Positions 1 to 28,340 are shown, counted from the stretch's first letter. The stretch: DNA of 43,087 bases from an uncultured Phenylobacterium sp. (GCA_966434565.1 CBJNAS010000001.1:1-43087); one strand, 5' to 3'. Notes: generated by a model from the letters alone, not told the origin. A program made the numbers and translations.

Positions 1-689
1 TAGGCCCAGACGCTGCCAGCGGTGATGCCGACGGTGAGGAAGATCCAGGAGGTCAGCACCCAAGGCCGGACCCAGCGCGCCCAGCTCGCGTCGACCCGTC
101 CGTCGATCAGGGCGGCGAGCGCGAAGGAGAAGGCCATGGAGAAGCCGACGTAGCCCAGATAGAGCACCGGCGGGTGGAAGATCAGCCCGGGATCCTGCAG
201 CACCGGATTGAGCTCGGCGCCGTCCGCCGGCGCCGGCCAGAGGCGCGTGAAGGGATTGGAGGTGAACAGCAGGAAGCCGATGAAGGCCGTGCCGACGAGC
301 GCCTGGACGGCGAGAACCCGCGCCTGCAGCGTCGGCCGCAGCCCGCCCCCGAACACCGCCACCGCCGCGCCGTAGACGGCGAGAATCGCCACCCACAGAA
401 GCATGGAGCCTTCGTGGCTGCCCCAGGTCGCACCCAGCCGGTAGAGAAGGGGCTGGGCGGCGTTCGAATGCTGGGCGACGAGGGCGACGGAGAAATCGTT
501 GCTGAGGAAACAGTCCGTAAGCGCTGCAAATCCGAGCAAAATGAAGAGCAGTTGAAGGTAAGCCGCTGTTCTGGCGAGTCCCACCAAGGCCGGTTCGACC
601 CTGGAGGCGCCGTAAAGACCGGCGCCGGCTTGGATGAGGGCGATGACGAGGGCCAGAATCAGTGAGAGCTGCCCAATTTCCGCTGTCAT
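1..689 (-). CDS. ccmF: Cytochrome c-type biogenesis heme lyase CcmF/NrfE family, 5' part (runs off the window edge)
   Basis: Not in the ORF track because it has no stop in the window. Manual translation from ATG at 689: MTAEIGQLSLILALVIAL...NDFSVALVAQHSN...WGSHEGSMLLW...FTSNPF...LNPVLQDPGLIFHPPVLYLGYVGFS...WARWVRPW...GITAGSVWAY. These are characteristic CcmF segments. GGAGG lies upstream. Confidence 0.93.
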   Translation of the reverse strand, partial: MTAEIGQLSLILALVIALIQAGAGLYGASRVEPALVGLARTAAYLQLLFILLGFAALTDCFLSNDFSVALVAQHSNAAQPLLYRLGATWGSHEGSMLLWVAILAVYGAAVAVFGGGLRPTLQARVLAVQALVGTAFIGFLLFTSNPFTRLWPAPADGAELNPVLQDPGLIFHPPVLYLGYVGFSMAFSFALAALIDGRVDASWARWVRPWVLTSWIFLTVGITAGSVWA

Positions 690-815
690 CAGCCCCTGTT
701 CCTCCGTACTCTGCTTCGCAGCTTAGCGACTTGTCTGCTTCCGTCGACGAGGAAATTGACGCCGCACCGAAGGTGGCGCCTATTGGGCTGAACTAGCGGC
801 GCGTGCGGGGGGCGT

Positions 816-3266
816 ATGGCGCATCGATATCGTGTCGCGATCGTCGGCGCGGGGCCTGCCGGCCTCAGCGCGGCCGCGCACGCCGCCAAGATCGGGGTGG
901 ACCACATCCTGATCGACCGGGCGCCGCAGATCGCCGACACGATCTTCCACTACCAGCGCGGCAAGCACATCATGGACACGCCGGCGCGGCTGCGCCTGCG
1001 GTCCGATCTGGACTTCTCCGCCACCAGCCGCGAAGCCCTGCTGGAGCTCTGGGACGAGCAGACCTCGGCCCTGAACGTGCAGGTCCGCCTGGGCGCCGAG
1101 CTGAAGTCCGTCACCGGCGCCCGGGGCGACTTCACCCTGCACCTGGCCGACGGGGACACCGTCCTGGCCGAGGCGGTGGTGCTGGCGATCGGCACCCAGG
1201 GCAACCCGAACCTGCTGCGCTGCGAAGGCGGCGACCTGCCCTTCGTCCAGTACCAGCTGGACGATCCCGAAGCCTATATCGACGAGCACATCCTGGTGGT
1301 CGGCGGCGGCGACGCAGGGATCGAGAACGCGCTCGGCTTGGCGGCGGACGCCGCGCAGGGCAACCGCGTGACCCTCAGCAACCGCTCGGCGGAGCTGTCC
1401 AAGGCGAAGGACGCCAATGTCCAGGCCCTGCTCGCCGCGCGCGACGAGGGCCGCGTCTCGGTGGTGATGCCCGCCGTGCCGGCGCGGGTGGAGAAAGGCT
1501 GGGTGACCCTGAGCACCGCCGAGGGGGACCTGCGCCTCCCCTGCGACCGCGTCATCGCGCGCCTCGGCTCCTCGCCGCCGCGGGCGTTCGTCAAGTCGCT
1601 GGGCCTGGGCTTCACCAGCGAGGCCAAGGACTCCTTCCCGGCGCTCACCTCCCAGTTCGAGTCGACGGTGCCAGGCATCTATGTGATCGGCGCGCTCGCC
1701 GGCTATCCCCTGATCAAGCACTGCATGAACCAGGGGCTGGACGTCGTCGAATACCTCATGGGCAACAGCCTGTGGAAGCCGGCCGACGAGGCGATGCTCG
1801 CCGAGAAGCTGCAGAGCCTCCCCGGCGACTATTCGGTGAGCGACTGGCTGGAGTTCCTGCGCGACAGCGTTGCGATCCTCAATCCGCTCTCGACGCTCCA
1901 GATGCGCGAGTTCCTGCTGGATTCTGAGGTGCGGGCCTACCGGCCGGGCGAAGTGGTCTTCCGCCGCAACGACGTCGGCTCGTCGCTGTTCGGCATCGCC
2001 TCGGGCAAGGTGCTGATCGAGGTCGATTTGCGCGATCCCAATGTCACCGCGCCGATCGGCGCCGGCTCCATCTTCGGCGAGGTGGGGCTGATCTCCGGGC
2101 GGCCGCGGGGCGCGACCGTGCGCGCCGCCGAGGATTGCATTCTGATCGAGGTCCCGAGGAATGCGGCGCTCAAGCTGATCTCCTCGGTGGAGGAGATCCG
2201 ACAAATCGTCGAGCGCACCACCACCGAGCGCGAGCTGCTGCAGATCTTCAGCTCCGGCCTGACGCGGGACGACATCGCCGAGCTCCTGTCGCGCGCGGAG
2301 GTGCTGGAGGTCGCGCCGGACGAAGCGGTGGTCCGCGAGGGCGAGACCAGCCGCGACATGTACGTGGTGCTCTCGGGCAGCATGGTGGTGGAGCGCGAGA
2401 TCGCCCGCCGCCCGGTGTTCCTGTCCTACATTCCGGCGGGCTCCTACTTCGGCGAAATGGCGCTCTTCGAGCGCTCGCCCCGGACCGCAACCGTGCGCGC
2501 GGCGATCCGCTCCAAGGTGATCCGACTGGACGGCCAGGCCTTCGACCTCCTGCTCAACCGAAAGCCCGAGCTGGTGGCTAAGTTGCGCGAGGACATGGCC
2601 TCGCGGCGCGAGCTCAACGCCTACATCGAGCAGAAGAAAGAGAGCTTCAGCGACGTCGTGGAGATGTACTCTTTGGTGAGCCGCTTCCTCGTCGAACAGG
2701 GGCTGGGCGAGGCCACCGACGTCCTGCTGATCGACGAGAGCCTCTGCATCGGCTGCGACAACTGCGAAAAGGCCTGCGCCGACGCCCACGACGGCCTGTC
2801 GCGGCTGAACCGCGAGGCCGGGCGCACCTACGACGACCTGCACGTGCCGACCTCCTGCCGGCACTGCGAGCACCCCTACTGCATGACCGACTGCCCGCCG
2901 AACGCGATCCGCCGCGGGCCGGACGGCGAGGTTTTCATCGACGACACGTGTATCGGCTGCGGCAACTGCCAGCGCGCCTGCCCCTATGGCGTGATCCGCA
3001 TGGACGCGCCGCCGCCGCGCAAGCCCCCGCTGTGGTCCTGGCTGCTGTTCGGCCGCGGCCCCGGGCCCGGCGAGCCGGATAGCGGCTGGAAGAAGCGGGC
3101 CTACGCCAAGGGCGAAGCGCCGCACAACAAGGCGATCAAGTGCGACATGTGCGCGGGCAAGGCGGGCGGGCCCGCCTGCGTACGCGCCTGCCCAACCGGC
3201 GCGGCGGTCCGCGCCTCGCCGGAGGACTTCCTGTCAGTCACCCTTATGAACCGCGACCGGGGCTGA
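816..3266 (+). CDS. Multidomain flavo-iron-sulfur protein: TrxB/FNR-like FAD/NAD(P)H oxidoreductase + two cNMP-binding domains + 4x[4Fe-4S] ferredoxin
   Basis: GAGPAG and GGGDAG Rossmann motifs. Two phosphate-binding cassettes (FGEVGLISGRPRGATVRA, FGEMALFERSPRTATVRA). Four Cys groups: CIGCDNCEKAC, CRHCEHPYCMTDCP, CIGCGNCQRACP, CDMC...CVRACP. Confidence 0.92.
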   Translation: MAHRYRVAIVGAGPAGLSAAAHAAKIGVDHILIDRAPQIADTIFHYQRGKHIMDTPARLRLRSDLDFSATSREALLELWDEQTSALNVQVRLGAELKSVTGARGDFTLHLADGDTVLAEAVVLAIGTQGNPNLLRCEGGDLPFVQYQLDDPEAYIDEHILVVGGGDAGIENALGLAADAAQGNRVTLSNRSAELSKAKDANVQALLAARDEGRVSVVMPAVPARVEKGWVTLSTAEGDLRLPCDRVIARLGSSPPRAFVKSLGLGFTSEAKDSFPALTSQFESTVPGIYVIGALAGYPLIKHCMNQGLDVVEYLMGNSLWKPADEAMLAEKLQSLPGDYSVSDWLEFLRDSVAILNPLSTLQMREFLLDSEVRAYRPGEVVFRRNDVGSSLFGIASGKVLIEVDLRDPNVTAPIGAGSIFGEVGLISGRPRGATVRAAEDCILIEVPRNAALKLISSVEEIRQIVERTTTERELLQIFSSGLTRDDIAELLSRAEVLEVAPDEAVVREGETSRDMYVVLSGSMVVEREIARRPVFLSYIPAGSYFGEMALFERSPRTATVRAAIRSKVIRLDGQAFDLLLNRKPELVAKLREDMASRRELNAYIEQKKESFSDVVEMYSLVSRFLVEQGLGEATDVLLIDESLCIGCDNCEKACADAHDGLSRLNREAGRTYDDLHVPTSCRHCEHPYCMTDCPPNAIRRGPDGEVFIDDTCIGCGNCQRACPYGVIRMDAPPPRKPPLWSWLLFGRGPGPGEPDSGWKKRAYAKGEAPHNKAIKCDMCAGKAGGPACVRACPTGAAVRASPEDFLSVTLMNRDRG

Positions 3267-3267
3267 G

Positions 3268-4128
3268 ATGAGAGCAGGGGCCCGGACCGAGCGGTTCCGC
3301 CATGAAGGCTTTCTGCGGCACCGCAACGGCCGCTGGCTCTGGATCGCCCTCGCCCTCTGCGTCGCCGCGGCGGGCGTCTATGCGATCGCCGATTTCCGGC
3401 CGCAGCCGCGCGGCGACACCTGGTACGGCTACGCCACCGGCGTCCTGGGCGCGGCGATCATCGTCTGGCTGGCGCTGCTGGGCCTGCGCAAGCGGGTGAT
3501 CACCGACGGGCGCTGGTCGCTGAAGGCCTGGGTCTCGGCCCACGTCTATCTCGGGCTGGCCCTGGTGGTGATCGCGACCCTGCACACCGGGCTGCATCTC
3601 GGATGGAACGTCCACACCCTGGTCTATGTGCTGATGATGCTGGTGATCGGCTCCGGCGTGGTGGGCGTGGTCGCCTACGCCCGCCTGCCGCGCCTGCTCA
3701 GCGCCAATCGCGGCGAGACCACCCAGAGCCAGTGGCTGGTGATGCTGAAGTCGATCGACGAGCGGCTGCTGGACGCGGCCCAGCCACTCGACCGCGCGGG
3801 GGCCCAGACGGTGCGCCTGGCCGTCGAGCAGACGGTGATCGCGGGTGGCTTGTGGCAGCGCCTCTCCGGTCAGGTGGAGGGCTGCGCCACCGCCCGCGCG
3901 CTGGCGCAGATCGAGCAGCTGCGGGGCGGCGGTGACGAGAAGCGGGCGGCCGCTCTCACACAGGTGGCCGCACTGCTCGCGCGCAAGCAGGAGGTGCTCG
4001 CCAAGGTGCGTCAGCACATCCGCCTGCGCACCACGCTTGAGCTGTGGCTGTACGTCCACGTCCCCGCCACCTTCGCGCTCCTTGCGGCGCTGACGGCCCA
4101 CATCGTCAGCGTTTTCTTCTACTGGTAG
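3268..4128 (+). CDS. Integral membrane protein, probable di-heme b (ferric-reductase-like) electron carrier
   Basis: About 5 hydrophobic helices and two H-X13-H pairs (HVYLGLALVVIATLH, HVPATFALLAALTAH). Starts 1 nt after the upstream stop. Confidence 0.8.
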   Translation: MRAGARTERFRHEGFLRHRNGRWLWIALALCVAAAGVYAIADFRPQPRGDTWYGYATGVLGAAIIVWLALLGLRKRVITDGRWSLKAWVSAHVYLGLALVVIATLHTGLHLGWNVHTLVYVLMMLVIGSGVVGVVAYARLPRLLSANRGETTQSQWLVMLKSIDERLLDAAQPLDRAGAQTVRLAVEQTVIAGGLWQRLSGQVEGCATARALAQIEQLRGGGDEKRAAALTQVAALLARKQEVLAKVRQHIRLRTTLELWLYVHVPATFALLAALTAHIVSVFFYW

Positions 4129-4136
4129 AGGCGCGC

Positions 4137-6035
4137 GTGGCCTTTCTCGTCCGGACCATCACCCGCAGGGCAGGAGGCGGCGCGATCGTGCGGCCGCGCA
4201 CATTCGAGGCCGACGAGCTGCGGATCGGCCGGGGCGCAGATTGCGATATCCGCCTGCCAGACCTGGCGGTCAGCCTGAATCACGCCGTGATCCGACGGGA
4301 GGCGTCCGGGCGGGTCACCGTCGCGGCGGTGGAGGAGGACGGCTTCGACGCCGACGGCGTCTTCACGCGCGAGGCGAGGCTGGACCTCGCATCGCCCCAC
4401 ACCCTGACCTTCGGCAGCCATGTCCTGACCGTCGCGGCCGCGCACGGCGGCGACGTCGCCATCGAGGTGGTGCGCAAACAGGCGGACGCTGCGCCGCAGG
4501 ACGTGGCGGAGGCGCGGTCGTTCACCCTCGCCTCGACCTGGCTGGACAAGCGGCGCACGGCCTGGGCGCTCGCAGTGGCGATCCTGCTGGTCGGCCTGCT
4601 GCTGCCCGCGGGCCTGTATTACCTCGGCCAGCCGCGCATCCACCTGGACCAGCAATGGTCGACCGGACGGCTATCGGAGGCGCATGCCTTCCTGAAGGGC
4701 GATTGCACGGCCTGCCACCGGCACGCCTTCGTCGCCGTCGAGGACCACGCCTGCCTGAGCTGCCACGGCCCGGCGCGGAGCCAGGCGCCGATGCTGCGCG
4801 CCGCAGCCGAGATCCGCGCCTGGGGAGGACCGGCCAAGGTGGCCGTGGCCCCGGACCATGCGGACCCGCGCCGCCTCGCCGACGCCATACCGCCGCCGCA
4901 AGACCACGGACGCAAGATCACCGCGGCCTTCGAGCAGGCCTTCCACCATCCAAACGACCGCTGCGCGAGCTGCCACTTCGAGCACCTCGGCGCGCGTCCG
5001 ACGACCGGCGAAGCCGGGGCGCTCGCGCCGGGCGCGCCCGCGGTGGTGATCGCCCACAGCTGCGTCGAATGCCACTCCAGTCTGCGCAGCCGCCTGTCTG
5101 ACACGGCGCTGCGCGACGCGCCCGACTGGCGCCACCACCCCGAGTTCAAGGCGCAGGTCGCTCAACCGCCGACGGGCGGGACCATCGTCGCGCAGCGCAT
5201 CTCCCTGACCGAACGGCCGGTGGAGTACACCGGCCTGACCTTCTCGCATCAGATACACCTGGATGTCGCCGGCGGCGTCGCCCGCATGGCCCGTGACCTG
5301 CACATCGCGCCCCGCGCGCTGCCCTGCGCGGCGTGCCACCATTCGAATGACGGCGGCCGGACCTTTGCGCCGGTGCGCATGGAGCGCGACTGCGCGGCCT
5401 GCCACTCGCTGGCCTTCGGCCAGCAGCCCGGCGGCCAGCCTCTGACCCTGCCGCATGGCGATCCCTTGGCGGCGGCGCGCGTGCTGCGCGCCTACTACAG
5501 CCACGGCGGGGCGCAGCTCGGTTTGGGGGAGTCCACGCGCCGCGCGCCCGGCTTTCTGATCACGGACCGCTCGTCCGGCAGCGGCGGCATGGCGTCCGCG
5601 GCGCGCGTCGCCGCGGTGCTGGGGCGGGGCGGGATCTGCAGCGAGTGCCACGTGGTCGGCATGATCCAGGATCGGGCGACGCTCGCTTTCACCGTCGCGC
5701 CGACGCGCCTGACGCGGCGCTATCTGCCGCTCGGCGGCTTCGACCACAGCGTTCGCGCCCACCGGCTGGACGCCTATGGCCGCCCGACCTGCGAGACCTG
5801 CCACAAGGCCGAGGCGTCCGGCAGCGCCTCGGACGTCATGATCCCCCGGGTGTTCCAGTGCGCCCAGTGCCACGGACGCTCGAAGGCGACGAGCCTGACG
5901 CCGGCCTCGGCCGATTGCGCCGAGTGCCACGCCTTCCACGCGCCCGGCGCGCCGGGCCGCCGCGACCCGGCCGCGGCCAAGGCTGGCGAAACGGCTGCGA
6001 TGCCGTCATCATGGTCCGGTGGGGGCGCGGGCTGA
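4137..6035 (+). CDS. FHA-domain, membrane-anchored decaheme cytochrome c
   Basis: GTG at 4137, 8 nt after the upstream stop, is preferred to the track start at 4044. FHA-like IGRGADCDIRLPDLAVSLNHA, one TM helix (WALAVAILLVGLLLPAGLYYLG), then 10 CXXCH motifs. Confidence 0.88.
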   Translation: MAFLVRTITRRAGGGAIVRPRTFEADELRIGRGADCDIRLPDLAVSLNHAVIRREASGRVTVAAVEEDGFDADGVFTREARLDLASPHTLTFGSHVLTVAAAHGGDVAIEVVRKQADAAPQDVAEARSFTLASTWLDKRRTAWALAVAILLVGLLLPAGLYYLGQPRIHLDQQWSTGRLSEAHAFLKGDCTACHRHAFVAVEDHACLSCHGPARSQAPMLRAAAEIRAWGGPAKVAVAPDHADPRRLADAIPPPQDHGRKITAAFEQAFHHPNDRCASCHFEHLGARPTTGEAGALAPGAPAVVIAHSCVECHSSLRSRLSDTALRDAPDWRHHPEFKAQVAQPPTGGTIVAQRISLTERPVEYTGLTFSHQIHLDVAGGVARMARDLHIAPRALPCAACHHSNDGGRTFAPVRMERDCAACHSLAFGQQPGGQPLTLPHGDPLAAARVLRAYYSHGGAQLGLGESTRRAPGFLITDRSSGSGGMASAARVAAVLGRGGICSECHVVGMIQDRATLAFTVAPTRLTRRYLPLGGFDHSVRAHRLDAYGRPTCETCHKAEASGSASDVMIPRVFQCAQCHGRSKATSLTPASADCAECHAFHAPGAPGRRDPAAAKAGETAAMPSSWSGGGAG

Positions 6036-6062
6036 CGCCGTTCGCCACAGAGTACGGACACC

Positions 6063-6896
6063 TTGATCAGGACCATCGCCCAGATCACCGACCTGCACAT
6101 CACCACCGAGCAGGATCCGGTGAACGCCGCGCGCAACCGCGCTCGCCTAGAGGCGACCCTCGCCGCCATCCATCGGCTGCGGCCGCTCCCCGAGGCGATC
6201 ATCGCGTCCGGCGATCTCGTCGACCGCGGCGGGCTCGCCGAGTACCAGGCGCTGCGCCCGCTGCTCGAAAGCTCGCGCATTCCGCTCCATATCGCGGTCG
6301 GCAACCACGACCGGCGAGCGCCCCTGCTGCAGGTGTTCGGGGCGCCCTGGCTGCAGGTCGACCCCGACGGGTTCGTGCAATATGTCGTCGAGGCGGGCGG
6401 GCTGCGCCTAGTGGTCTGCGACACGCTCGACGAAGGCCGCGAGGGGGCGGGCTTCTGTGAGCGGCGCGCCGCCTGGCTCGCGCGGACGCTGGACGAGGCC
6501 CCGCAGACGGCGGCGATCGTGATCATGCACCATCCGCCGATCCCGAGCGGCATCGGCTGGATGGACCCGCCTCCCAACGCGCCGTGGCTTGCCCGGCTCG
6601 CCGCGGTCCTGGCGCCGCGCCCGCAGGCGTTGACGCTCGCCAGCGGCCACGTCCACCGCGCCTTTCTGGGCGTATTCGCCAGCCGGCCGGCGGTGGTCTC
6701 GCCCGCCACCGCGGTCCAGCTCACCCTCGACCAGACGCCGCTGGACCCGAAGGCGCCGGACGGGCGCGAGCTGCTGACCGAGGAGCCGCCGGGCTTCGCC
6801 CTGCACAATTGGGACGGCCACCAGCTCGTCACCCATTTCTGCCCGGCGGGAGACTACGCGCCGGCGGTGCGGTTCACCTTCCCGCTGAACGCCTGA
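6063..6896 (+). CDS. Metallophosphoesterase, CpdA/Icc-like 3',5'-cyclic-nucleotide phosphodiesterase
   Basis: Motifs QITDLH, SGDLVD, GNHD, MHHPP, GHVH. No signal peptide. Confidence 0.85.
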   Translation: MIRTIAQITDLHITTEQDPVNAARNRARLEATLAAIHRLRPLPEAIIASGDLVDRGGLAEYQALRPLLESSRIPLHIAVGNHDRRAPLLQVFGAPWLQVDPDGFVQYVVEAGGLRLVVCDTLDEGREGAGFCERRAAWLARTLDEAPQTAAIVIMHHPPIPSGIGWMDPPPNAPWLARLAAVLAPRPQALTLASGHVHRAFLGVFASRPAVVSPATAVQLTLDQTPLDPKAPDGRELLTEEPPGFALHNWDGHQLVTHFCPAGDYAPAVRFTFPLNA

Positions 6897-9800
6897 CCGA
6901 GGGCGCTGGGCCCGGCAGAGGCGGGCCGGTCCAGCTGTCCGGATCTGGTAGGTCGGTCACGGCGTAGAGCCGACCGGCGGAATCCAGGAACAGGTGCTCC
7001 ATCTCCTGCCGGTTGAACGGCCGCGAGCCCTTGCGGCCGAAGATGGCGATCTGGTGCCCGGTCTCGTCCACCGCCCGGTCACGGTCGAGCCCCTTGGACA
7101 GCGCGAGCGCCGGTGAGGGCGTGCGCGCCCAGGCGATCAGCTGCGGCTTCGGCTCCGGTGAGAAGCCGTAGAAGTTGGGCTGGCTCTCCGGGCTGGTGAG
7201 CTGCAGCACCTTCAACCCGTTGCGGCCATCGGCGACATAGGCGAACAGCGAGGCGTTGGTGGAGCCCACGATTACGTCCTCGGCGTCGTCGAGCGCCCCG
7301 TTCAGGGTCACCTGCATGTAGCGTTGGGGATGTTCCGGCCGGGTGACGTTGAGAATGACGAGGCCGTCGGACTTGGCCGCCACATAGGCGTATGTGCGGG
7401 CCACATAGATCCGGCGCGCGTCGCGGATCGGATAACGCGCGCCCTCCACCAACTGCGGCCGGTCGAGACGCGTGACGTCCAGCACGTCAAGGCCGGCTGC
7501 GTCGGTGACGAACAGATAGCGGAACTGCAGGGCCGAGGCGCGTACGTCCGGCAGCGGCACGATGCTCGCCACCTTCGGCTTCAGCGGATCGTCGAGGTCG
7601 ACCACGACGAGACCGGCGTGGGCGGCGACATAGGCGAAATGGCCGCCCAGGGTGACGTGACGGGCGCCGTCGAGCACATGCGCCGGGTTCCAGGTCAGCG
7701 CGCGGCGCAGGTTGTTGTTGCGCGGGTCGCGGTCGGCCAGGGTGGTCACATCGACGAGGATGAGACCCTCTTCGGCGTCGGTCACCACGGCGTAGTTGTA
7801 GAGCGGGTGGAACGGCTGCTCGGCGTTCTCCAGCCGCATGGCCTCGGTGTTCCGCCGCGGATCGATCGGCTGGTTGGTGGGCAGGGCCATGCAGGTCGCG
7901 TTGCGCGAGGACACGTGCATGTTCTGGCCCAGCGGCGAAAACGGCCCGGTGAGGATCCGGTCCGAGACGCCCTTGTTGGCGATGCTGGCCACGTCGTAGA
8001 CGCGGAACCCATCCTTGCCGCCGGCGGCGAACATATACTCGCCGCGCAGCTGCAGGCAGCGGATCGCGTCCGGCGCGGCGTGGCTCACATTGCGGATGTC
8101 CTCGGTCTCGGGCTTGCCCTGCTTGCCGTGGAAGGTGTCGCCGCGCACCCAGTCGATCAGCTCCCGGTGGTTTCGCTCGACGTGCAGCTTGTAGTAATCG
8201 GGATAGGCGTAGCGATGCAGGTAGGAGCCGAAGACCGCCTGCGGCTCGCTCCATTCCGTGACGCGCACCGCCTCGAGGCCGCGCTCGAGGCCGACCCAGG
8301 CGTTCACGCCCACGAAATTCACGAAATTGGTCCCCAGCGTCAGCAGCTGGGCCATGATGGCGTTGTTGTCGTTGTCCGCCGAGACGTGGCAGTCCGAGCA
8401 GGTTTTAGTCTCGGTCTTGCGTACCGTGTGCGGGAAGTGCGGCGCGAACGCCTGGCTGGAGAAGCCGATGGCGGAGATCGGCGGCTGCTGGACGTAGATC
8501 CGCTCTCGGTTGGCGTTGGTCGACGACAGCACGAGCGCCGAGGACGACCGGACCGGCGCGATCTCGGCGCCCTTGGTCGTCATGTGCCGCCCGAGCTGGA
8601 ACATGTCGTCACGCGCGACCTGCGGGTTGTAGGTCGCGAAGTTGCGCGTCTCCTCGCCCTCGTACTTGTGCGCCGTCGTCTTCCAGTTGGACTCGATCGG
8701 CAGGTGGCACCCGCCGCAGGAGGTCATCCACGACGTGTGGCAGGTGAAGCAGGCCATCTCGCTGTCCTTGTGCGCGAGATCCTTTTCCGCGACGCCCGGT
8801 CCCCAGGCGAAGGGCCGGCCAGAGGCGTCGAGGCGGGCCATCAGCTTCGCCCGCGCGGCCTTCGGATTGAACTCCGGTCGGGCCGGGTCGACCGAGTCCT
8901 TCACGAGCGAGACCTGCCACTCCAGAGAGGAATCGGCGATCGAGCGCTGGATCAGGACGCGATAGCCGTTGCGCTCCTCCCACTCGAAGCGCGGCCGGCC
9001 GTCGGGATTGCGTAGCAGGGTGAGGTCCGTACCGCCGGGCGGCGCCGCGGGGCCGGAGGTCTTCAGCGTCGGATAGGCGCGCGCCGACCCGTGGCAATCC
9101 TTGCAGCCGATCTCCACCGCATTGGCGACCTCGCCGTAGATCAGGCCGCTGCCGTGGCTGTCGCGGGCGAAGTGGCAGTCGGCGCACTGCATACCCCTTT
9201 CGGCGTGGATGTCCATCAGCTGGACCGCCTTGCCGGGATTGACGCCCGGCGCGACGAACTTGCCTTCGCCGTTGCGCCGCCAGATCTCCGGATCGCCCGA
9301 CGGGATCACCTTGCCGTCGGCGTCCAGCAGCCGTCCCTCTCGGTCACGTTTGAAGATCGCGCGGAAATTCCAGCCGTGGCCGTGGTAGTCGGCGAACTGG
9401 GTGTCCTTCAGCTTCGGATTGAGGTCGTAGACGTTGCGCAGGAAGTCGAGGTCCGCCCACTTGCCGCGCGGCGAGGCGCCCTCGGGATTACGGTCCAGAA
9501 CCTTGCGGATTTCCTCGTCCGACGGATAGCGCTGCTGCTCCGGCCACATGAACGGCGCATCGGACTCGTAGTCCCACATGGTGTAGCCGAGATAGCTGTT
9601 CAGGAACATGTTCGGCTGGTGCATGTGGCAGTTCATGCACTGGGAGGTCGGTATGGCGCGCGTGAAGGCGTGCTCGATCGGATGGCCGGATTCGTGCTTG
9701 TCGATGGTGGGGTCCGCCGTCGCGCTCTGGCCGTCGCGGCCGTAGCGGGCGTAGACGAGGCTGTGCCGGGGCTCGCGGTCGTTGGCGTAGACCACATGGC

Positions 9801-10821
9801 AGGAGGCACAGCCTGAGGATCGGTAGTCGCCGGGCTGGTCGTTGGTGCCCAGGAACCAGGTGAAGGGATCGTTCAGGCGGGTCTTGTGGATGTTGAGGAC
9901 CGGGATCGCCACGCGCAGCCCGGTGCCCGGGCCCCGGTTGGACTGGCGGATGTCGGGGCGGCCGGGCTCCTCCAGCCGCTGCAGCTGGCCGGTCGCATCG
10001 GGCAGGCCGAACTCCGGGAACTGGGAGCCGTTGTTGCGGCCGCCGCGCTCGAAGACGCGGAACACGTCCGCCGGCGGGGTCACGTTCCAGATCGGCAGAG
10101 GCCAGAGCCGCGCAAGCGCGCCGCGCGCCTTCTGCGCCGGCGTGACCGTTCCGGGCGGGGATCCGGGCGAGGCGATGCTCGCGGGTTTGCCGTCGCGCGT
10201 ATAGGCCTCGCCCAACACATAGTTCTTCGTCGGCACGATGCCGTTATTGTAGGACGCGCCCCCCAGCAGCATGGCGCCGGTCGCCATAAGCGAGCGTTCC
10301 GAGGCCTGGATCTCCGCGAGGTGACAGGCGCCGCAGGATTCCCGCGCCACGCGGTAATCCGACGGATTGACGAAGCGGACGAACTCGGGCGCCTCCCGGT
10401 TTAGGAGGGTGTAGCTCTCGCGCGGCTTGGCCGAGCGGGGATAACCCCAGCTCTGCGGATAGCGCGGCAGGACGTGGGCCCTGTCGCGCAGCTGGGCGTA
10501 GGCGGCGGTGGACCTGTCGAGGCCGGCGGGAGCGGCGACGCTGGGGTCGCCGCCATGGCAGTCGGCGCAGCCCAGCACCACCGCGTTCGAGCGGTGCATG
10601 GAGGGCGCGTCGGAGGCGGTGTGGCAGGTGCGGCAGCCGGCGCTCTTGGCCTCGGCCTGGGCGGGGGTTTCGCTGGCGGGCGCGGGCGGGGCCGTGACAT
10701 AAGTCCGCGCGACCGGCGCTTCGCGCTCTCCGGCATGCGGCGGGCTCGCCGTGAGCAGGGTGAGGGAGAGCGCCGCCAGCGCCGCTTTGAGACCAGTCCA
10801 GACGTAGCCGCGCACGCCCAT
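6874..10821 (-). CDS. Secreted decaheme cytochrome c with C-terminal LVIVD-repeat (beta-propeller) region
   Basis: Signal peptide (...PPHA|G), 10 CXXCH motifs, and C-terminal repeats GFRVYDV, GLILVDV, GLVVVDL, GLDVLDV, GLVILNV, GLKVLQL, each preceded by an aromatic-rich strand such as YAYVA. Confidence 0.9.
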   Translation of the reverse strand: MGVRGYVWTGLKAALAALSLTLLTASPPHAGEREAPVARTYVTAPPAPASETPAQAEAKSAGCRTCHTASDAPSMHRSNAVVLGCADCHGGDPSVAAPAGLDRSTAAYAQLRDRAHVLPRYPQSWGYPRSAKPRESYTLLNREAPEFVRFVNPSDYRVARESCGACHLAEIQASERSLMATGAMLLGGASYNNGIVPTKNYVLGEAYTRDGKPASIASPGSPPGTVTPAQKARGALARLWPLPIWNVTPPADVFRVFERGGRNNGSQFPEFGLPDATGQLQRLEEPGRPDIRQSNRGPGTGLRVAIPVLNIHKTRLNDPFTWFLGTNDQPGDYRSSGCASCHVVYANDREPRHSLVYARYGRDGQSATADPTIDKHESGHPIEHAFTRAIPTSQCMNCHMHQPNMFLNSYLGYTMWDYESDAPFMWPEQQRYPSDEEIRKVLDRNPEGASPRGKWADLDFLRNVYDLNPKLKDTQFADYHGHGWNFRAIFKRDREGRLLDADGKVIPSGDPEIWRRNGEGKFVAPGVNPGKAVQLMDIHAERGMQCADCHFARDSHGSGLIYGEVANAVEIGCKDCHGSARAYPTLKTSGPAAPPGGTDLTLLRNPDGRPRFEWEERNGYRVLIQRSIADSSLEWQVSLVKDSVDPARPEFNPKAARAKLMARLDASGRPFAWGPGVAEKDLAHKDSEMACFTCHTSWMTSCGGCHLPIESNWKTTAHKYEGEETRNFATYNPQVARDDMFQLGRHMTTKGAEIAPVRSSSALVLSSTNANRERIYVQQPPISAIGFSSQAFAPHFPHTVRKTETKTCSDCHVSADNDNNAIMAQLLTLGTNFVNFVGVNAWVGLERGLEAVRVTEWSEPQAVFGSYLHRYAYPDYYKLHVERNHRELIDWVRGDTFHGKQGKPETEDIRNVSHAAPDAIRCLQLRGEYMFAAGGKDGFRVYDVASIANKGVSDRILTGPFSPLGQNMHVSSRNATCMALPTNQPIDPRRNTEAMRLENAEQPFHPLYNYAVVTDAEEGLILVDVTTLADRDPRNNNLRRALTWNPAHVLDGARHVTLGGHFAYVAAHAGLVVVDLDDPLKPKVASIVPLPDVRASALQFRYLFVTDAAGLDVLDVTRLDRPQLVEGARYPIRDARRIYVARTYAYVAAKSDGLVILNVTRPEHPQRYMQVTLNGALDDAEDVIVGSTNASLFAYVADGRNGLKVLQLTSPESQPNFYGFSPEPKPQLIAWARTPSPALALSKGLDRDRAVDETGHQIAIFGRKGSRPFNRQEMEHLFLDSAGRLYAVTDLPDPDSWTGPPLPGPAPSVRRSAGR

Positions 10822-10822
10822 C

Positions 10823-12625
10823 TCAGAACGCCGCCACGGCTTCGAGAAGCACGGAGTAGTAGGCCCGCCCGCCGCGGCTGGTGGTGAACAGGTGGCCGAA
10901 GCCGGGGCCGGGCGCCAGGGCGGCGGCCGACAGGCGGTAGACCAGGTTCTGGGTCATCCGCGGACGCCAGATCACGGCCAGGGAATAGTCGCCGCCGATC
11001 CGACGCGGGATCGAGCCCTCCTGGCGCAAGGTTTGCAGCACGGCGGTGTCGGCGAACCACAGCTGGTTGAAGTTGGCGCTGAGCCGCAGGGTCGGCAGGA
11101 GATCGAAGTCGGCGCCGACGCCGAGCAAGGCAGTGCCGGGATTGTTGAAGTTGGACTGCCCTTCCTCCTTCGAGGAACGCAGCGCGTTCAGTATGGCGTT
11201 GCGGCCGTTGACGCCCAACGCCCGCCCGCCGCCCGCGAAGGGAATGCTCTGGCGGATCCAGTAGCTCGTGTCGGCACCGGCGAATTGCGGGTTCTCGAAG
11301 ATGGCGTCGAACCCGGTCTCGACGTTGTCGTTCGGATTGCGGTCGCCCGAGGCGTAGAGGCCCGACAGCCGCACCCGCACCCAGTCGAAGTCCATCGCTG
11401 GCTCAGCGGCGACGAACCAGGCGCGGATTCGCGCCGGCCGGTTGGTGAAGATGCTGTCGCGGTCCTCGCCGAAGGCGAAATAGGCTGAGGCCGTCAGGTT
11501 CAGCCGCCCGAAGTGGCCGTCGCCGTTGTAGCCCAGGTAGGCCACGTCGTAATCGCGCGCGCGGATGTCGCCGATCAGGGCGGGCCGGGCCGGGAAGCCG
11601 TTGGTGTCGACGTGGATCTCGCCAGCCTCGCGATTGGCGTTGTAGACCAGCGTGACCTGCGAGGTGAACCCGGGGACCGGAAGATCCTGACGGTAGAGGT
11701 TGGCCGCCGCGACATAGTCGCGCCGCACCTTCTGGGTGAGGTCGTTGAGCCCGGAATTCGTGTCCTTCTCGAGCCGGGCGAAGGCGGCGAGGTTGTACTG
11801 GTAGCGGTTGTTGTCGCGGGTGCCGAAGAGGCGCACGCCGAGCTGGTTGTCCTGGAACAGGAAGCCGCGGAAGTCCGTCGAGAACGGCTGGATGCCGAGC
11901 CGCAGCGTGTCGAAGTCGTAGCGCGCCGAGACATTGCGCAGGTGGTAATCGAGGAACAGCTCCTGGACGCCGATGAAGGCCTCGCTGCGCCGCGGCGGCG
12001 CGGTCGGCTTCACCGACAGGATGCGCCGCTCGGAGACGGTGACGTAGTTGTAGTTGAAGGCAAGACTCGCCCGGAGTTCGATCTCCGGCGGCTTGAAGGT
12101 GGTTGCGCCCTTGATCAGCTCCGCCCCGACGAGGAAGGTCTGAGACGCGGCCATGCTGCGCGCGCGCCCGAACACGTCGAGGCTTCCGGGCCGCGAGGTC
12201 GTCTGCACCCCCACCGGCGTCGGAAAAGAGCGCGGCTCGACCACCGTGTCGGAAATCCCGCTGAGCACGAAGAACCAGTCCTTCGTCCCCTTGATCGGCC
12301 GGTCGCCCTTGAGGGTGTTCTGGTTGTAGGGATCGAACCACCGGCTGTGCGCCAGCCCGAGAGTCTCGATCAGCCGCCAGCGGTCGGGGATCGGCAGCTG
12401 GTCCGTCGGGAAGCTTTCGGGCGGCGGCGTCTCCACGGCCCCGGGGTTCACCTGCACGGTGGGCACCGGGTAGGAGGGCTGCTCGCCGGGCTTGCGCCGG
12501 GCCTCGGCATCATCGGGCTGCGGGCTCGCGGCTTGGGCGGGGTCGGCCGCCGGCTCGGCCGCACGGGCCGGCGCGGCGGCCAGCACCGCGGCGAGGCAGA
12601 GGGCGAAAGGCGCGGCCGGCCGCAT
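10823..12625 (-). CDS. Predicted outer-membrane beta-barrel protein
   Basis: Signal peptide ending ARA-A, Pro-rich N-terminus, many alternating amphipathic strands rich in F/Y/N/D, and a C-terminal Phe (YSVLLEAVAAF). Tightly packed in the operon. Confidence 0.75.
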   Translation of the reverse strand: MRPAAPFALCLAAVLAAAPARAAEPAADPAQAASPQPDDAEARRKPGEQPSYPVPTVQVNPGAVETPPPESFPTDQLPIPDRWRLIETLGLAHSRWFDPYNQNTLKGDRPIKGTKDWFFVLSGISDTVVEPRSFPTPVGVQTTSRPGSLDVFGRARSMAASQTFLVGAELIKGATTFKPPEIELRASLAFNYNYVTVSERRILSVKPTAPPRRSEAFIGVQELFLDYHLRNVSARYDFDTLRLGIQPFSTDFRGFLFQDNQLGVRLFGTRDNNRYQYNLAAFARLEKDTNSGLNDLTQKVRRDYVAAANLYRQDLPVPGFTSQVTLVYNANREAGEIHVDTNGFPARPALIGDIRARDYDVAYLGYNGDGHFGRLNLTASAYFAFGEDRDSIFTNRPARIRAWFVAAEPAMDFDWVRVRLSGLYASGDRNPNDNVETGFDAIFENPQFAGADTSYWIRQSIPFAGGGRALGVNGRNAILNALRSSKEEGQSNFNNPGTALLGVGADFDLLPTLRLSANFNQLWFADTAVLQTLRQEGSIPRRIGGDYSLAVIWRPRMTQNLVYRLSAAALAPGPGFGHLFTTSRGGRAYYSVLLEAVAAF

Positions 12626-12628
12626 GCC

Positions 12629-14581
12629 CTACTTGCCCTCGCAGACGCTCTGGTCGTTCGTCGCCAGGAAGGGCGCGAACGGGCAGTTCACATAGCGCAG
12701 CCTGACCCCGCCGGCGCCCCGGTTCACGACGATCTGGTCGGAGCGGATTGCCGCCGGCGCCTCGCCGATCCCGCCGACGCGCTGGCCTGCGTTGTAGACG
12801 GCGAGGAAGGAGATCATGTCGTCCTGGTCGATGCCGTCGCCGGAGACGCCCACCGCCCCGACCAGCACGCCGTTGCGATAGATCGGCGTGGAGCCGGGGA
12901 AGATCTGGATCCCGTTCCTCAGCGGGTTCTGGCCAGAGCGGGCGTCGACCACGCCCGTGCACGCCCGCGGCGGATCGCCTTGCAGCAGATTGCTGCGGAT
13001 CAGGGCGAACTGGAGGCCGGTGTTGAACGGGCTCCATTGGCTGATCGGCAGGGAGAAGGGCCCGTTCGGCTGGCCATCCTGACCGTCGGGGAAGAACGGC
13101 CGCGCCAGATTGCCGATCGCGCGGGCGGTGAAGGCGGTTTTGCCGGTGAGCGCCGCCGGATCGCCCAGGAAGTCGCGCGTGTTCTGCACCACGCTGCTCA
13201 GGTAGCGCTGCGTCGCCGGGTCGGGGTCGCGCACGGCGGTCAGGTCGTCGGCGGCGTGAGCGCTCGAGAAGAAGGCGGCCGTGCGCGCCTTCTGCACCGC
13301 CACGTCGGTCCCGAAGACCGGGGCGTCGGGCGCCCGCACGAGGCCCAGCACCGCGCCCCGGGTGTCGACCACGGCGACGCTGACCTGGGCGCGGCTGTCG
13401 AGCGGCCGGCGAATCTGCGCCCGCGAGGCGCTCATCACCTTGAAGCCCTCTTCCAGCAGGGCGGTCACCTCGGCCGCGCTCAGAGGCTGCGGCGTTCCAT
13501 CGGCTGCGTCGCCCCCCGCCTGGATCGGAAAGCGGTTCGCGCCGTGGCCGTCGGTGAGCACGAAGGCGTCCGAGTTCGAGAACTCCGCGGCCGTGGCCCG
13601 GCGGATGCCGGAGTCCTCCGTGCCGTAGACCACGCCGGCGTGAACGCCCGCGCCGTCATAATAGCCGGGCGCCGCCACGAAGGCGCCCGTCGAGGGGGGC
13701 AGGCCGGAGAGGGCCGGCGCCGAGGCCGGATCGCTCTTCAGCCCGCTGCGGCCCACGTCGCTATAGCGCAAGGTCGTGCCGTCGACCGTGACCTGGTCGG
13801 CCTGGATGCCGGCCGGCGCGTCGAAGCCGACGGTGGCGGCGAACGCGATCGCCTCGTCGGTGACGTCGGCGTCGGTGTCCTGCACATTGGTGTCGAAGCC
13901 GTAGATGCCGTCGGCGAGCACGCCGACACCGCCGACAAGGGTCCCGTTCTTGTACAGCGGGAAGCCGCCCGGGTCGGCGGCCAGGCCCAGCGGCGAGCGC
14001 TTCGGGCCTATGAAGGCGTCCGACTGGCGCGGCGCCACGTCCGAGCAGGGCAGCTGGCTGAACTGCACGCCGAACAGCGGCCCGCTCTCCAGGCCCGTGG
14101 TCGCCGGGCTGGGCGGAAAGTGCTGCTGGACGATCATGCTGGCCGTGCGCGTCGAGAACGCGTTGCCGCCGGAGGAGAGATAGGCGCCGGTGATCGCCTT
14201 GGCGATCGCTGCGGCCGCGGCCGGCGGCTTGAGGCCCTGCGGGTCCGGATCGGCGCCGTCCGTGGCCGGGCCTGCGAAGCTGGCGGTCGCCGGGGCGCCG
14301 GCCATGGCGTAGACGGCGAGCACATTGCCCACCCGGTCCGTGACGGCGATCGTCGCAGGCTTGCCGCGGGCCTTCGCCTCCGCGACCGCCTGGGCGAGGA
14401 TCTGCTGCACGTCGGCCACGCTCAGCGACACGGCGGCCGGCGTGGCGTAGAGGCTGCCCGCCCCTCCGCCGGCAGACGGCCCGCCGCCGGCGGAGCCTGC
14501 GGAGCTTCCGCCGCCTCCGCCACCGGAGCACGCGCCGACCATCAGCGCCAGGGCGAGCGCCCAAGCCTTACGCCGCTTCAT
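12629..14581 (-). CDS. Lipoprotein with two GlcG/HbpS-like heme-binding domains
   Basis: True start is ATG at 14581 (ATGA overlap with the upstream stop). Lipobox MKRRKAWALALALMVGA-C, then a Gly/Ser linker. Two copies of the GlcG/HbpS pattern: IAVTDRVGNVL...AIAKAITG...GGFPLYKNGTLVGGVGVLAD and VAVVDTRGAVL...AVQKARTA...GSTPIYRNGVLVGAVGVSGD. Confidence 0.85.
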   Translation of the reverse strand: MKRRKAWALALALMVGACSGGGGGGSSAGSAGGGPSAGGGAGSLYATPAAVSLSVADVQQILAQAVAEAKARGKPATIAVTDRVGNVLAVYAMAGAPATASFAGPATDGADPDPQGLKPPAAAAAIAKAITGAYLSSGGNAFSTRTASMIVQQHFPPSPATTGLESGPLFGVQFSQLPCSDVAPRQSDAFIGPKRSPLGLAADPGGFPLYKNGTLVGGVGVLADGIYGFDTNVQDTDADVTDEAIAFAATVGFDAPAGIQADQVTVDGTTLRYSDVGRSGLKSDPASAPALSGLPPSTGAFVAAPGYYDGAGVHAGVVYGTEDSGIRRATAAEFSNSDAFVLTDGHGANRFPIQAGGDAADGTPQPLSAAEVTALLEEGFKVMSASRAQIRRPLDSRAQVSVAVVDTRGAVLGLVRAPDAPVFGTDVAVQKARTAAFFSSAHAADDLTAVRDPDPATQRYLSSVVQNTRDFLGDPAALTGKTAFTARAIGNLARPFFPDGQDGQPNGPFSLPISQWSPFNTGLQFALIRSNLLQGDPPRACTGVVDARSGQNPLRNGIQIFPGSTPIYRNGVLVGAVGVSGDGIDQDDMISFLAVYNAGQRVGGIGEAPAAIRSDQIVVNRGAGGVRLRYVNCPFAPFLATNDQSVCEGK

Positions 14582-15972
14582 CTGATCTTCCCGGCGGTGA
14601 CGCCGATGCGCTGCAGAGCCTGGCGCAGCACGGCGGGCTGGAAGGTGTTGGGATCGCGCACCGCCGCATAGGCGCTGGCGACCGCCTGGCTCAGGCCCGG
14701 CGGGGCGTTTCCGCCGGACTGCGCCAGGAGCGCGGTGACCAGGGTGTCGGCGGCCATCACCGCCTGAGCGCCGCCGGCATAGTCGGTATAGCGCGCCGCG
14801 CCGTCGGGCGCGGTGATGCGGCTCAGGATGGCCATGGTGTCGGAGCGGCCGAAGGCGCGGGGCGCGAACGCGGCCTCCAACGCCTGGGTCGAGCCCTGCA
14901 GCCTCGCCGCGGCGGCCACCGTGGCCTCGCGGCCCTGGGCGAAGGCGGTATGGAACGCGCGCGCATCGGCGTCGAACCGGTCGGCATCCTGCGGGGCCAG
15001 GGCGTGCGCGGCGGCCGTCAGCATGATCATGTTCTCGTCGTTGAACGGCGGAAAGCCGCGCGGCAGCGCCCGACCGGGATTGGGCTCGGCGGTCAGGGGC
15101 GTGGCGGGATCGTCCGAGATCCGTCGATGACAGCTGTGGCAGTCGAAGAAGGTGAACTCGGGAAAGGCGCCGCGCACGGCTAGGGCCGGGGCCTGGTAGA
15201 GCGCGAGCGCCCGCTCGAGCGCGGCCGTCTGGCCGAGCGCCCAGGTCTTGGTCCCATTGCGGATCGTCTTGCGGGCCGCGTAGTCGGCGTCGAGGTCGTA
15301 GTGCCGCTGCAGCTCGGTGAATAGGTCGAGCTCGAAGGACAGGCGCGGGTGCCCCGCCGCCATCATCTCGTGAGTGACGAATCGGCCGTCCTGGCCGCCG
15401 AGGTGGCAGCCGAGGCAGACTCGCGCGCGCACCGCCGGATCCTCCAGCGGCCGCAGGCCTCGGGCCACATTGTCGGCGTGGGTCGCGTTCAGCGCGCGGT
15501 GGCTGGCCAGCCAGTCGCCGGCGCCGCCGTGGCAGGCCTCGCAGCCGACGCCGTCGGAGATCTGGAAGCGGGTCCGGGGCTGGCCCGGCGCGGGCCGGTC
15601 GGCGTGGCAGGCGAGGCACACGGGGGCGGCCTCTGCGCGGCCGATTCCCATGCGCGCGGCGATCGCCTGGCCGCGCCGCCCCTTGAGCACCGCCCAAGCG
15701 CGGCTGTGCGCCCCCTCCGGGCCGGTCGGATCCTGCCAGGTGCGCAGTTCGTCGCCCCGGATATGCACGCCGCTGGCGACCTGCCGGCCGTGGCAGGTCG
15801 ATCCTGCGCAGGACGCCACGCCTTCGTGAACATGCGCCGTCTCGCCCTGAGCGCGCGCGGGCGTCGAGCGCCCGGCCGCCAGACAGGCGAAAATCAGCAT
15901 GCAGAGTATGGTCCCGCCATGCCGCAGGACGACACCCCGCAAGAAGCGCGCACGATTAAGGAACGCCCCCAC
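14578..15972 (-). CDS. Secreted multiheme cytochrome c (c554-like), 4 CXXCH + 1 CX4CH
   Basis: Signal peptide ending PARA-Q. Motifs CAGSTCH, CLACH, CEACH, CLGCH, CHSCH, followed by a helical C-terminal region. Exact start uncertain. Confidence 0.85.
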   Translation of the reverse strand: MGAFLNRARFLRGVVLRHGGTILCMLIFACLAAGRSTPARAQGETAHVHEGVASCAGSTCHGRQVASGVHIRGDELRTWQDPTGPEGAHSRAWAVLKGRRGQAIAARMGIGRAEAAPVCLACHADRPAPGQPRTRFQISDGVGCEACHGGAGDWLASHRALNATHADNVARGLRPLEDPAVRARVCLGCHLGGQDGRFVTHEMMAAGHPRLSFELDLFTELQRHYDLDADYAARKTIRNGTKTWALGQTAALERALALYQAPALAVRGAFPEFTFFDCHSCHRRISDDPATPLTAEPNPGRALPRGFPPFNDENMIMLTAAAHALAPQDADRFDADARAFHTAFAQGREATVAAAARLQGSTQALEAAFAPRAFGRSDTMAILSRITAPDGAARYTDYAGGAQAVMAADTLVTALLAQSGGNAPPGLSQAVASAYAAVRDPNTFQPAVLRQALQRIGVTAGKIR

Positions 15973-18118: not shown

Positions 18119-18122
18119 GCTG

Positions 18123-20379: not shown

Positions 20380-20404
20380 CGCCCCCTGCCTCGCTCCCCA
20401 CCAT

Positions 20405-28331: not shown

Positions 28332-28340
28332 CCCCTCCCC

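Follow-up and report, generated by a model that had tools for sequence, protein, structure and literature searches.

We analyzed a 43,087-nucleotide stretch of DNA from an uncultured Phenylobacterium sp. (GCA_966434565.1, CBJNAS010000001.1:1-43087; hereafter the window), which is the entire contig C1 of a 3.9-Mb, 70% GC, 80%-complete alphaproteobacterial assembly. Its first 15,972 nucleotides carry eight genes, lettered A to H here, and a ccmF gene. We tentatively read this locus, with a confidence that falls somewhat short of even, as a cyclic AMP (cAMP)-gated chain that would lead from NAD(P)H to the periplasm and feed a reductase module associated with the outer membrane. The gene set itself is real and ordinary in frequency. 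What we observed are the cofactor motifs of the proteins, their conservation, the co-inheritance of the genes, an 18-strand model of a barrel protein, and homology to two predicted porin-cytochrome clusters, PCC4 and ptd.

All eight genes and ccmF lie over positions 1-15972, as the original prediction made from this sequence had listed them. The minus-strand ccmF stands at the contig start, A-B-C-D run on the plus strand, and H-G-F-E converge on them from the minus strand, so closely that the ends of D and E overlap (Table 1). The locus has 24 CXXCH motifs and one CX4CH, again as originally counted; the CX4CH is conserved, giving 25 heme-c sites. A six-frame count served as chance control. Beyond positions 1-15972 and their 24 CXXCH, the window has 0 and the remaining genome 0.24 per 16 kb. 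Only C, E, and H exceed two CXXCH per frame anywhere in the assembly. The cell compartments given for all products were read from signal and transmembrane (TM) motifs.

The two operons are co-inherited

A GTDB scan with E returned at least 448 confirmed relatives, with about 2400 matching stretches (stretches, not genomes) estimated in all, and the best 80 of these at least 448 relatives make up our 80-locus set (L001-L080), which leans to close kin. Since kin among the loci and genomes are not independent, the co-occurrence figures that follow are counts and not tests. Within the 80 loci, F was present in 74, G in 68, H in 62, D in 45, C in 40, B in 37, and A in 35. When only loci with enough upstream DNA are considered (n=59), F and G were each present in 59/59 and H in 57/59, and all seven core genes were found in 29 of the 48 loci with both flanks. 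Where the fetched locus of an E-bearing genome had no B, the genome itself did contain one (17/17).

An even sample of 251 Alphaproteobacteria, seed genome included, contained F in 13 genomes (about 5%). The 12 other F-bearing genomes all carry a close B on the same contig, within about 7 kb (12/12), and F is present in 12 of the 13 other close-B genomes. In a gammaproteobacterial sample (n=201), a close B was found in 5/5 strong-F genomes, a figure that leaves out the seed genome and one unpublished genome (the raw tallies, 33/201 and 8/201, include the latter), and F is missing from two close-B genomes. All 26 selected genomes have H and 24 of them have A; the two without A use a split PtdC + PtdE input, as named in ptd, and in one genome (G551, L102) A was counted as a match but is broken into several frames, with E split likewise.

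Outside the sphingomonads and caulobacters, the usual order is one single-direction run, A-B-C-G-F-E (L068, L072, L074, L095-L099, L101, L107, and L119). Named carriers are mostly Sphingomonadales and Caulobacterales, which are aerobic heterotrophs, and they include cultured strains of Novosphingobium, Sphingomonas, Sphingobium, and Qipengyuania; the gene set also occurs in Gammaproteobacteria, Myxococcota, and Verrucomicrobiota. Because of the co-occurrence counts and the single-operon order in distant phyla, both operons are one co-inherited system, as had been proposed. Two unrelated operons that are neighbors here by chance would fit the genomes in which the operons are unlinked, e.g., 1.7 Mb apart in Novosphingobium sp. 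BL-8A, and each operon half is also found paired with ptd parts. The counts of 12/12, 5/5, and 17/17 and the single-operon order in several phyla largely refute this explanation, to which we give hardly any credence.

Some loci depart from the common pattern. The 2.8-Mb genome G530 has two full B-C-G-F-E-H copies (L103 and L104); in each, a CHASE2 cyclase gene points away from B, and an A gene is found further off. Two H paralogues stand within one locus in L106 (16672-19384) and in L107. In L089 (G191), which adjoins transposases, the decaheme gene is split over several frames; either decay or an assembly error may account for this and for the split frames of L102. A thiamine pyrophosphate (TPP) enzyme and aldehyde dehydrogenase pair flanks 22/80 loci and glutamate dehydrogenase 19/80; this may reflect shared ancestry, though it is notable beside the EfgA-like pocket of G described below.

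A putative electron chain across the inner membrane

The flavin domain of A is of the TrxR/YpdA type and lacks CXXC, 16 conserved cysteines fall in a four-cluster arrangement, and the two cyclic nucleotide monophosphate (cNMP) domains lie between the flavin and iron-sulfur (Fe-S) parts. Residues 369-800 match PtdE (profile E-value 8e-53; pairwise 5e-40), and the N-terminal third matches an FeS-TrxR gene found beside PCC3-type loci (E 6e-38).

In B, four histidines (H92, H106, H264, and H278) are invariant across 28 aligned rows, and two WX3HX13H motifs with (S/T)GXXG are found in 41/41 rows of the family; the match to Pfam Ferric_reduct is weak (E 0.003). The PCC4 paper (He, Barco, Emerson, Roden 2017, PMC5566968) interprets two WX3HX13H motifs as ligands for di-heme b, in the manner of ferric reductases. 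Two Myxococcota loci encode fusions, cNMP-FeS-B (L121:8100-10358) and FeS-B (L120:9632-11590). Because cNMP/FeS domains are fused to a B-like domain there, these proteins support a direct transfer from Fe-S to heme b. The same fusions adjoin cytochromes of 15-30 hemes and a protein partly like E.

C has 41 amino acids (aa) per heme and nine conserved extra histidines, and looks like a short wire. Its match to the PtdG profile (E 2e-9) is weak and partly driven by heme motifs. A phosphothreonine-binding FHA motif consists of G-R and S-x-x-H; in the FHA domain of C, G-R is kept and, by hand count, the Ser is present in only 12/43 rows, the window's C included. This count weakens the proposal that the FHA domain supplies a phospho-input.

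All three clades of B (see below) have an NAD(P)H flavoprotein on the cytoplasmic side, and it comes in two folds that are unrelated to each other. Here and next to most PCC3-type loci the fold is TrxR-type; ptd loci have the FNR-type PtdC. The locus would most naturally be read as a chain from NAD(P)H and FAD through FeS and heme b to heme c that spans the inner membrane.

Probable cyclic nucleotide input and accessory genes

The phosphate-binding cassette G-E...R is intact in both cNMP domains of the window's A and of 41/41 full-length homologues. Each of 8 PtdE-type proteins had a single detected cassette, which is likewise intact. Together with the adenylate-type cyclases often encoded nearby, these pockets are consistent with the cyclic-nucleotide input that was originally suggested. 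In 27/80 loci, E has a CHASE2 cyclase-family gene no more than 10 kb away, at several different positions; a cyclase domain is present in all eight CHASE2-cluster members scanned, and in three gammaproteobacterial loci (two genomes) the cyclase is directly divergent from B or beside G. Lys together with Thr/Ser is the rule for adenylate cyclase specificity, and the adenylate-type Lys and Thr/Ser are present in 16/16 aligned cyclase domains. Because the neighboring cyclases are adenylate-type, cAMP appears the likelier ligand of A's cNMP domains, with the link to a cyclase apparently lineage-dependent. In this assembly's own contig C53 (1-8283, L122), a CHASE2 cyclase without the catalytic Asn stands beside a caspase/FGE-sulfatase-domain protein, and two large proteins without a Pfam match are also encoded there.

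The phosphodiesterase D matches SpdA with an E-value of 2e-36, which is below that family's cut-off. Apart from its 45/80 loci, D was found in 1/9 close-type loci of the even alphaproteobacterial sample and 0/20 of another locus set, and it was seen only in sphingomonad- and caulobacter-type loci. The phosphodiesterase and the cyclase are accessory, not core; the original prediction had counted the former among the core parts, which these counts do not support.

The outer module and a predicted shuttle

AlphaFold2 modelled F as an 18-strand barrel (mean pLDDT 74), which agrees with the earlier assignment of this 600-aa protein as a beta-barrel. Among the Foldseek matches listed, the best was AlgE (E 2.6e-17), followed by OprD/Occ channels, with no MtrB entry among them, and in the ESM Atlas F falls with alginate-export-like clusters. 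The best-conserved stretches of F are, in our own reading of the topology, the long outer loops and the N-terminal arm, a pattern known from substrate channels with inward-folding loops.

E has 75 aa per heme, compared to about 33 in MtrA-type wires and a median of 26 in PCC3 wires, and 12 invariant histidines beyond the motifs for its ten hemes. Its propeller is confidently seven-bladed (Z 28.8, root-mean-square deviation 2.6, 290 aligned), and Foldseek and VIA-align searches of the E model matched the propeller alone. No lipobox was found when the sequence was read by eye. Because of its 75 aa per heme, E resembles an enzyme and is a candidate terminal enzyme. A complex prediction of F (75-600) with E (45-509) scored 0.04 against a mark of 0.32, which is no evidence either way.

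These features bear on an outward conduit across both membranes, switched by cAMP, in which E or H would thread into or dock on F and deliver electrons to Fe(III), Mn(IV), humic quinones, or electrodes. We consider such a conduit unlikely. The barrel and the decaheme protein are adjacent and co-inherited in 59/59 informative loci, the lumen-facing and loop residues of F are strongly conserved, as if something specific sits inside, and true wire cytochromes are found in PCC3, whose IMP belongs to the family of B; the homologous PCC4/ptd clusters have also been proposed as porin-cytochrome conduits in the sections describing them (PMC5566968; bioRxiv 10.1101/2023.11.21.568154). However, F has 18 strands where MtrB has 26, its Foldseek matches as listed contain no MtrB, and E has 75 aa per heme and, by eye, no lipobox. 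Of the wire across both membranes in the original prediction, the inner-membrane part thus corresponds to the natural reading given above, while the outer-membrane part fits poorly with the strand number of F and the heme spacing of E.

The best solved relative of G is the formaldehyde sensor EfgA (E 1.7e-11). In the second domain of G only, K431 and S580 are invariant and D587 and R416 are conserved at 90% or more; these pocket residues are the equivalents of K57, S114, D121, and R42 of EfgA. HbpS-type heme binding needs a conserved His ligand. Since G has no His at 95% conservation (37 rows), its HbpS label does not amount to heme binding.

In H, the fifth site, CX4CH, is conserved, and there are 46 aa per heme. 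Its profile matches cytochrome c554 (1BVB, E 2e-8), and it also matches PtdD (profile E 6e-12; pairwise E 1e-8). H was considered as a PtdA and rejected; as a single sequence it gives no match to the PtdA relative 5ZE8, and as a profile a weak one (E 2.5e-4), whereas it matches PtdD.

A redox sensor would make different use of the same parts, with G and E reading an envelope ligand or oxidant, the hemes reporting inward, and A combining that report with the cAMP made by a CHASE2 cyclase that is linked to surface proteins of the secreted kind. The DUF336 proteins studied, EfgA and HbpS, are described as sensors in the EfgA paper (PMC8153426), C bears an FHA domain, and CHASE2 cyclase, ShlB/TPS, FecR, Crp, and CHAT genes flank many loci. 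On the other hand, the seven-gene core has no output domain (kinase, HTH, or cyclase), the FHA Ser is kept in few rows, and 25 c hemes with a second ccm set would be costly. We regard a sensor as improbable.

Relation to known and predicted systems

The closest relatives of the locus are PCC4 and ptdABCDEFG, each presented in its published section as a predicted porin-cytochrome cluster (PMC5566968 and bioRxiv 10.1101/2023.11.21.568154, respectively); from these published descriptions we infer that the two are one cluster. Distant matches of B led to loci ordered pentaheme, porin, FNR-type oxidoreductase, tetraheme, cNMP/FeS protein, B, and decaheme. Seven of them serve as our putative ptd reference loci (L082-L088), which were assigned by gene order, heme counts, and a 5ZE8 match. 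The L084 pentaheme protein matches Thermochromatium c552 (5ZE8, E 1e-8), and PtdA is described in the section on it as c552-like with a beta-sandwich and related to 5ZE8 (bioRxiv 10.1101/2023.11.21.568154).

The likeness to ptd runs through most of the chain. The inner-membrane protein (IMP) of ptd loci, PtdF, which B matches pairwise, has two WX3HX13H motifs and SGXXG as B does. Upstream of it, the cNMP/4Fe-4S protein PtdE corresponds to the C-terminal half of A, and downstream, the decaheme PtdG corresponds, weakly, to C. The c554-like tetraheme cytochrome PtdD corresponds to H, and both kinds of locus have an NAD(P)H flavoprotein and a barrel. In contrast, the flavin domain in the window is TrxR-type and fused to A, where ptd has the FNR-type PtdC; G-F-E stand in the place of PtdA/PtdB; H has the fifth site CX4CH; C carries an FHA domain; and a phosphodiesterase and a cyclase are often added in window-type loci. 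With the PtdA profile, no window protein fell below an E-value of 0.2 (E occupies its place), and the PtdC profile found nothing among the window proteins. Profile searches between F and PtdB were negative (E above 0.2), and one weak 89-aa pairwise stretch was found (E 9e-4).

A tree of 41 B proteins has three supported groups (PCC3-like, ptd, and window type), among which the window-type B proteins stand as a separate clade (99/98 support); the joining of the PCC3-like and ptd groups carries a long-branch warning. Hybrids occur: two Verrucomicrobiota have a ptd-clade B with PtdC/PtdE and yet G, F, E, and H, and two Proteobacteria have window-type A-B-C plus PtdB, one of which (L100) also has PtdA. 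These hybrids show the outer module G-F-E swapping with PtdA/PtdB both ways. On these homologies, the locus appears to be a variant of the predicted PCC4/ptd kind; it would not be a full member, because it lacks PtdA and PtdC and its PtdB is unproven, nor a Mtr system. What is new relative to PCC4/ptd is the fused TrxR-type flavin domain and the different outer module G-F-E. We found no paper on the G-F-E module and no experiment on the family in the literature searched, in which subscription papers were largely beyond reach.

PCC3, as described in the same 2017 paper's section on it, shares the IMP family of B, and 6/8 PCC3-like loci fetched have a nearby divergent FeS-TrxR gene matching the flavin domain of A (E 1e-57 to 1e-66). 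It differs in its repeat wires, which have 21 hemes and more compared to the 10, 10, and 5 heme sites of the window, in barrels of up to 42 strands compared to the 18 of the F model, and in having no cNMP domains, and the window's B lies outside the PCC3-type clade. Single frames in PCC3-like loci reach 69 CXXCH (L117:860-5971) and 55 CXXCH (L090:3348-7556); the FeS-TrxR gene is divergent in both loci and is not mentioned in the published PCC3 section.

A set of parts in the order of C-B-A is also found in iron oxidizers. The section of a preprint on Ferrigenium straubiae describes a trio of an FHA-nonaheme, a 5-TM, and a [4Fe-4S] protein, expressed in all tested conditions (bioRxiv 10.64898/2026.01.22.701106), and He 2017 (Suppl. 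Table 6) lists Gallionellaceae trios of a 9-heme protein, an IMP, and a redox protein of 796-805 aa. An FHA-TM-multiheme protein, a 5-TM protein, and an Fe-S protein are thus shared, and from architecture and lengths these trios may be homologous to C-B-A. The Ferrigenium trio differs in its nine hemes and lack of a porin, and the published section mentions neither cNMP nor flavin domains.

MtrCAB, MtoAB, and PioAB with CymA likewise have decahemes in one genome region with a barrel of the outer membrane and a carrier of the inner membrane. However, MtrB has 26 strands to the 18 modelled for F, and Mtr is fed by quinol whereas the window locus would be fed by NAD(P)H-flavin-FeS. No MtrA, MtrC, or CymA family match above cut-off was found among the window proteins, and TIGR03508 (MtrA/DmsE) was far below cut-off for C, E, and H (41, 75, and 46 aa per heme). 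The locus is unlike these families, as originally stated. The further statement that no characterized system has this composition stands in the literature searched, with the qualification that the inner chain is homologous to the predicted PCC4/ptd and that the Ferrigenium trio has been described.

EfgA (in the sections of PMC8153426) and HbpS, AlgE, and SpdA are single-part relatives of G, F, and D, respectively, and were not found in any multiheme system in the literature searched; G differs from EfgA and HbpS as a double-domain lipoprotein without a conserved His. Two other candidates were set aside, Tenderia uetA-J for its other parts and lack of cNMP or FHA domains, and the Verrucomicrobia octaheme porin clusters because they are described differently (PMC5615132).

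Proposed electron path and its direction

The direction, gating, and output of the chain are what we infer as follows. Electrons would pass from NAD(P)H to FAD and then to four [4Fe-4S] clusters in A, from there to two b hemes in B and ten c hemes in C, and on through the five-heme shuttle H to the ten-heme propeller protein E. Because the cNMP domains are placed between the flavin and Fe-S parts, they may act as an allosteric gate, with cAMP at both domains opening or closing the FAD-to-FeS step. The reductase module would act at the inner face of the outer membrane, where E would reduce a small soluble substrate entering through the AlgE/OprD-type channel F, and G would bind or sense that substrate. 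What suggests a reductase with a small substrate is that the barrel is small, the cytochrome resembles an enzyme, and the lipoprotein has a ligand pocket. An enzyme-like end is also favored by the swapping of the outer module with PtdA/PtdB, PtdA being related to a soluble c552, and by the aerobic heterotrophy of the orders to which most named carriers belong.

NOX/ferric reductase and Fre-MsrQ-MsrP systems pass electrons likewise from NAD(P)H and flavin through a di-heme b membrane domain to an extracytoplasmic acceptor; the locus differs by its relay of Fe-S clusters, its cNMP domains, and its 25 c hemes. By this analogy, its logic may be closer to a transmembrane reductase of the NOX/Msr type, lengthened by multiheme relays, than to mineral respiration.

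Outward flow is favored because an NAD(P)H flavoprotein recurs in two folds and transfer from NAD(P)H to c hemes is downhill. Were the flow inward or quinone-linked, E and H would oxidize an outside or periplasmic donor, and B would reduce quinone or, via A, NAD(P)+. This is the model drawn for PCC4 in its published section (PMC5566968) and for the Ferrigenium straubiae FHA-nonaheme trio (as described in bioRxiv 10.64898/2026.01.22.701106), and the listed Gallionellaceae iron oxidizers carry the trio of a 9-heme protein, an IMP, and a redox protein of about 800 aa. However, electrons moving from c hemes to NAD(P)+ would go uphill unless the donor were very reducing, as is established thermodynamics, and a B that feeds quinone would make the recurring cytoplasmic FeS-flavin partner unneeded. 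Most of the named carriers are not known lithotrophs. We judge inward flow distinctly unlikely.

Several points weigh against the cAMP-gated chain with its outer reductase. With regard to the gate, the catalytic Asn is missing in 8/16 aligned cyclases, the copy on this genome's C53 included; the cyclase lies outside the window, as an orthologue on that contig; and the 27/80 adjacency is a raw count not set against chance. No cyclase was found in the 16-20 kb fetched around nine close-type loci of the even alphaproteobacterial sample (0/9). With regard to the output, the 790-residue heme region of E has no solved relative by sequence search and a low-confidence model in which no active site is seen, and its 12 extra histidines could fill all ten hemes as bis-His carriers. 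The lipobox is missing in some G homologues, and the K57/S114/D121 triad, which in the relevant section of PMC8153426 is widely conserved in DUF336 proteins, names no substrate. The inward direction proposed in the sections on related clusters has been cited above. Finally, promoter boxes (FNR, CRP, Clr, CtrA, Irr) were searched for upstream of A in 45 loci and of H in 65, and nothing clearly above shuffles emerged that would hint at a condition.

A bolder version of the outward chain, which we find doubtful when taken as a whole, is that in ordinary aerobes a cAMP-switched flavo-ferredoxin drains NADPH via a di-heme protein and 25 c hemes to a novel, sleeve-free complex of the outer membrane (no MtrA-in-MtrB) that would reduce extracellular acceptors. 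This complex would consist of an 18-strand barrel, a decaheme-propeller protein, and a DUF336 lipoprotein, with the outer module swappable with PtdA/PtdB.

Gene coordinates and surroundings

The start codon of C was picked by eye from the ribosome-binding site after the B stop; a 663-aa reading of C and a 1022-aa reading of G were rejected as upstream in-frame extensions with unlikely starts.

Table 1. Genes at positions 1-15972 of the window, with strand and principal support for each assignment.
Gene and product	Position	Strand	Support
ccmF, 5' part	3-689	-	Pfam Cytochrom_C_asm; runs off contig start
A: cytoplasmic, TrxR/YpdA-type FAD/NAD(P)H + two cNMP + four [4Fe-4S] (NrfC/DmsB-type)	816-3266	+	Pfam Pyr_redox, 16 conserved Cys
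B: ferric-reductase-like inner-membrane protein, predicted di-heme b	3268-4128	+	two WX3HX13H
C: cytoplasmic FHA, one TM, periplasmic decaheme	about 4137-6035	+	10 CXXCH
D: SpdA/CpdA-like metallophosphoesterase	6063-6896	+	best NCBIfam SpdA E 2e-36
E: exported decaheme + seven-bladed LVIVD beta-propeller	6874-10821	-	10 CXXCH + LVIVD
F: 18-stranded AlgE-like outer-membrane barrel	10823-12625	-	AlphaFold2 model
G: lipoprotein, two DUF336 (GlcG/EfgA/HbpS) domains	12629-14581	-	lipobox + DUF336
H: c554-like cytochrome, predicted periplasmic shuttle	14578-15972	-	4 CXXCH + CX4CH

A second ccmF paralogue (49%) lies on contig C358, and contig C526 starts with the next stretch of the window's ccmF, which likely continues as ccmF-G-H on C526 and ccmI on C112. 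This cytochrome c maturation set is probably dedicated to the locus and separate from the paralogous set on C358. Near the cluster, ccmF was found in 8/80 loci and a CcmH-type TPR gene in 27/80. After ccmI, on the opposite strand of C112 (1299-8829), are genes that we read by eye as type IV secretion (virB-like).

On the other side of the locus, an OmpA-domain protein gene (16236-16901, plus strand) is divergent from H; it was rejected as a cluster member, with no match beside the cluster in the 80 loci. Positions 16907-22641 encode two cyclopropane-fatty-acid-synthase-like methyltransferases, DUF2177, DUF1295, an amine-oxidase-like FAD protein, and DUF1365. An IS6-family DDE transposase (24564-25340, plus strand) separates this lipid cluster from a purine degradation region (25529-42963) with an amidohydrolase, a xanthine/uracil permease, an M20 hydrolase, a deacetylase-like gene, OHCU decarboxylase, a xanthine dehydrogenase FAD subunit, XdhC, LysR, and a TonB-dependent receptor.

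Significance

The relatives of this locus in PCC4/ptd came from uncultured or hard-to-handle organisms, and the cultured carriers found here make the function of the family testable. If true, the direct gating of an electron-transfer enzyme by a cyclic nucleotide would be new biochemistry as far as the literature searched goes, as would a ten-heme domain without a solved sequence relative and outer modules that can be swapped on one inner chain.

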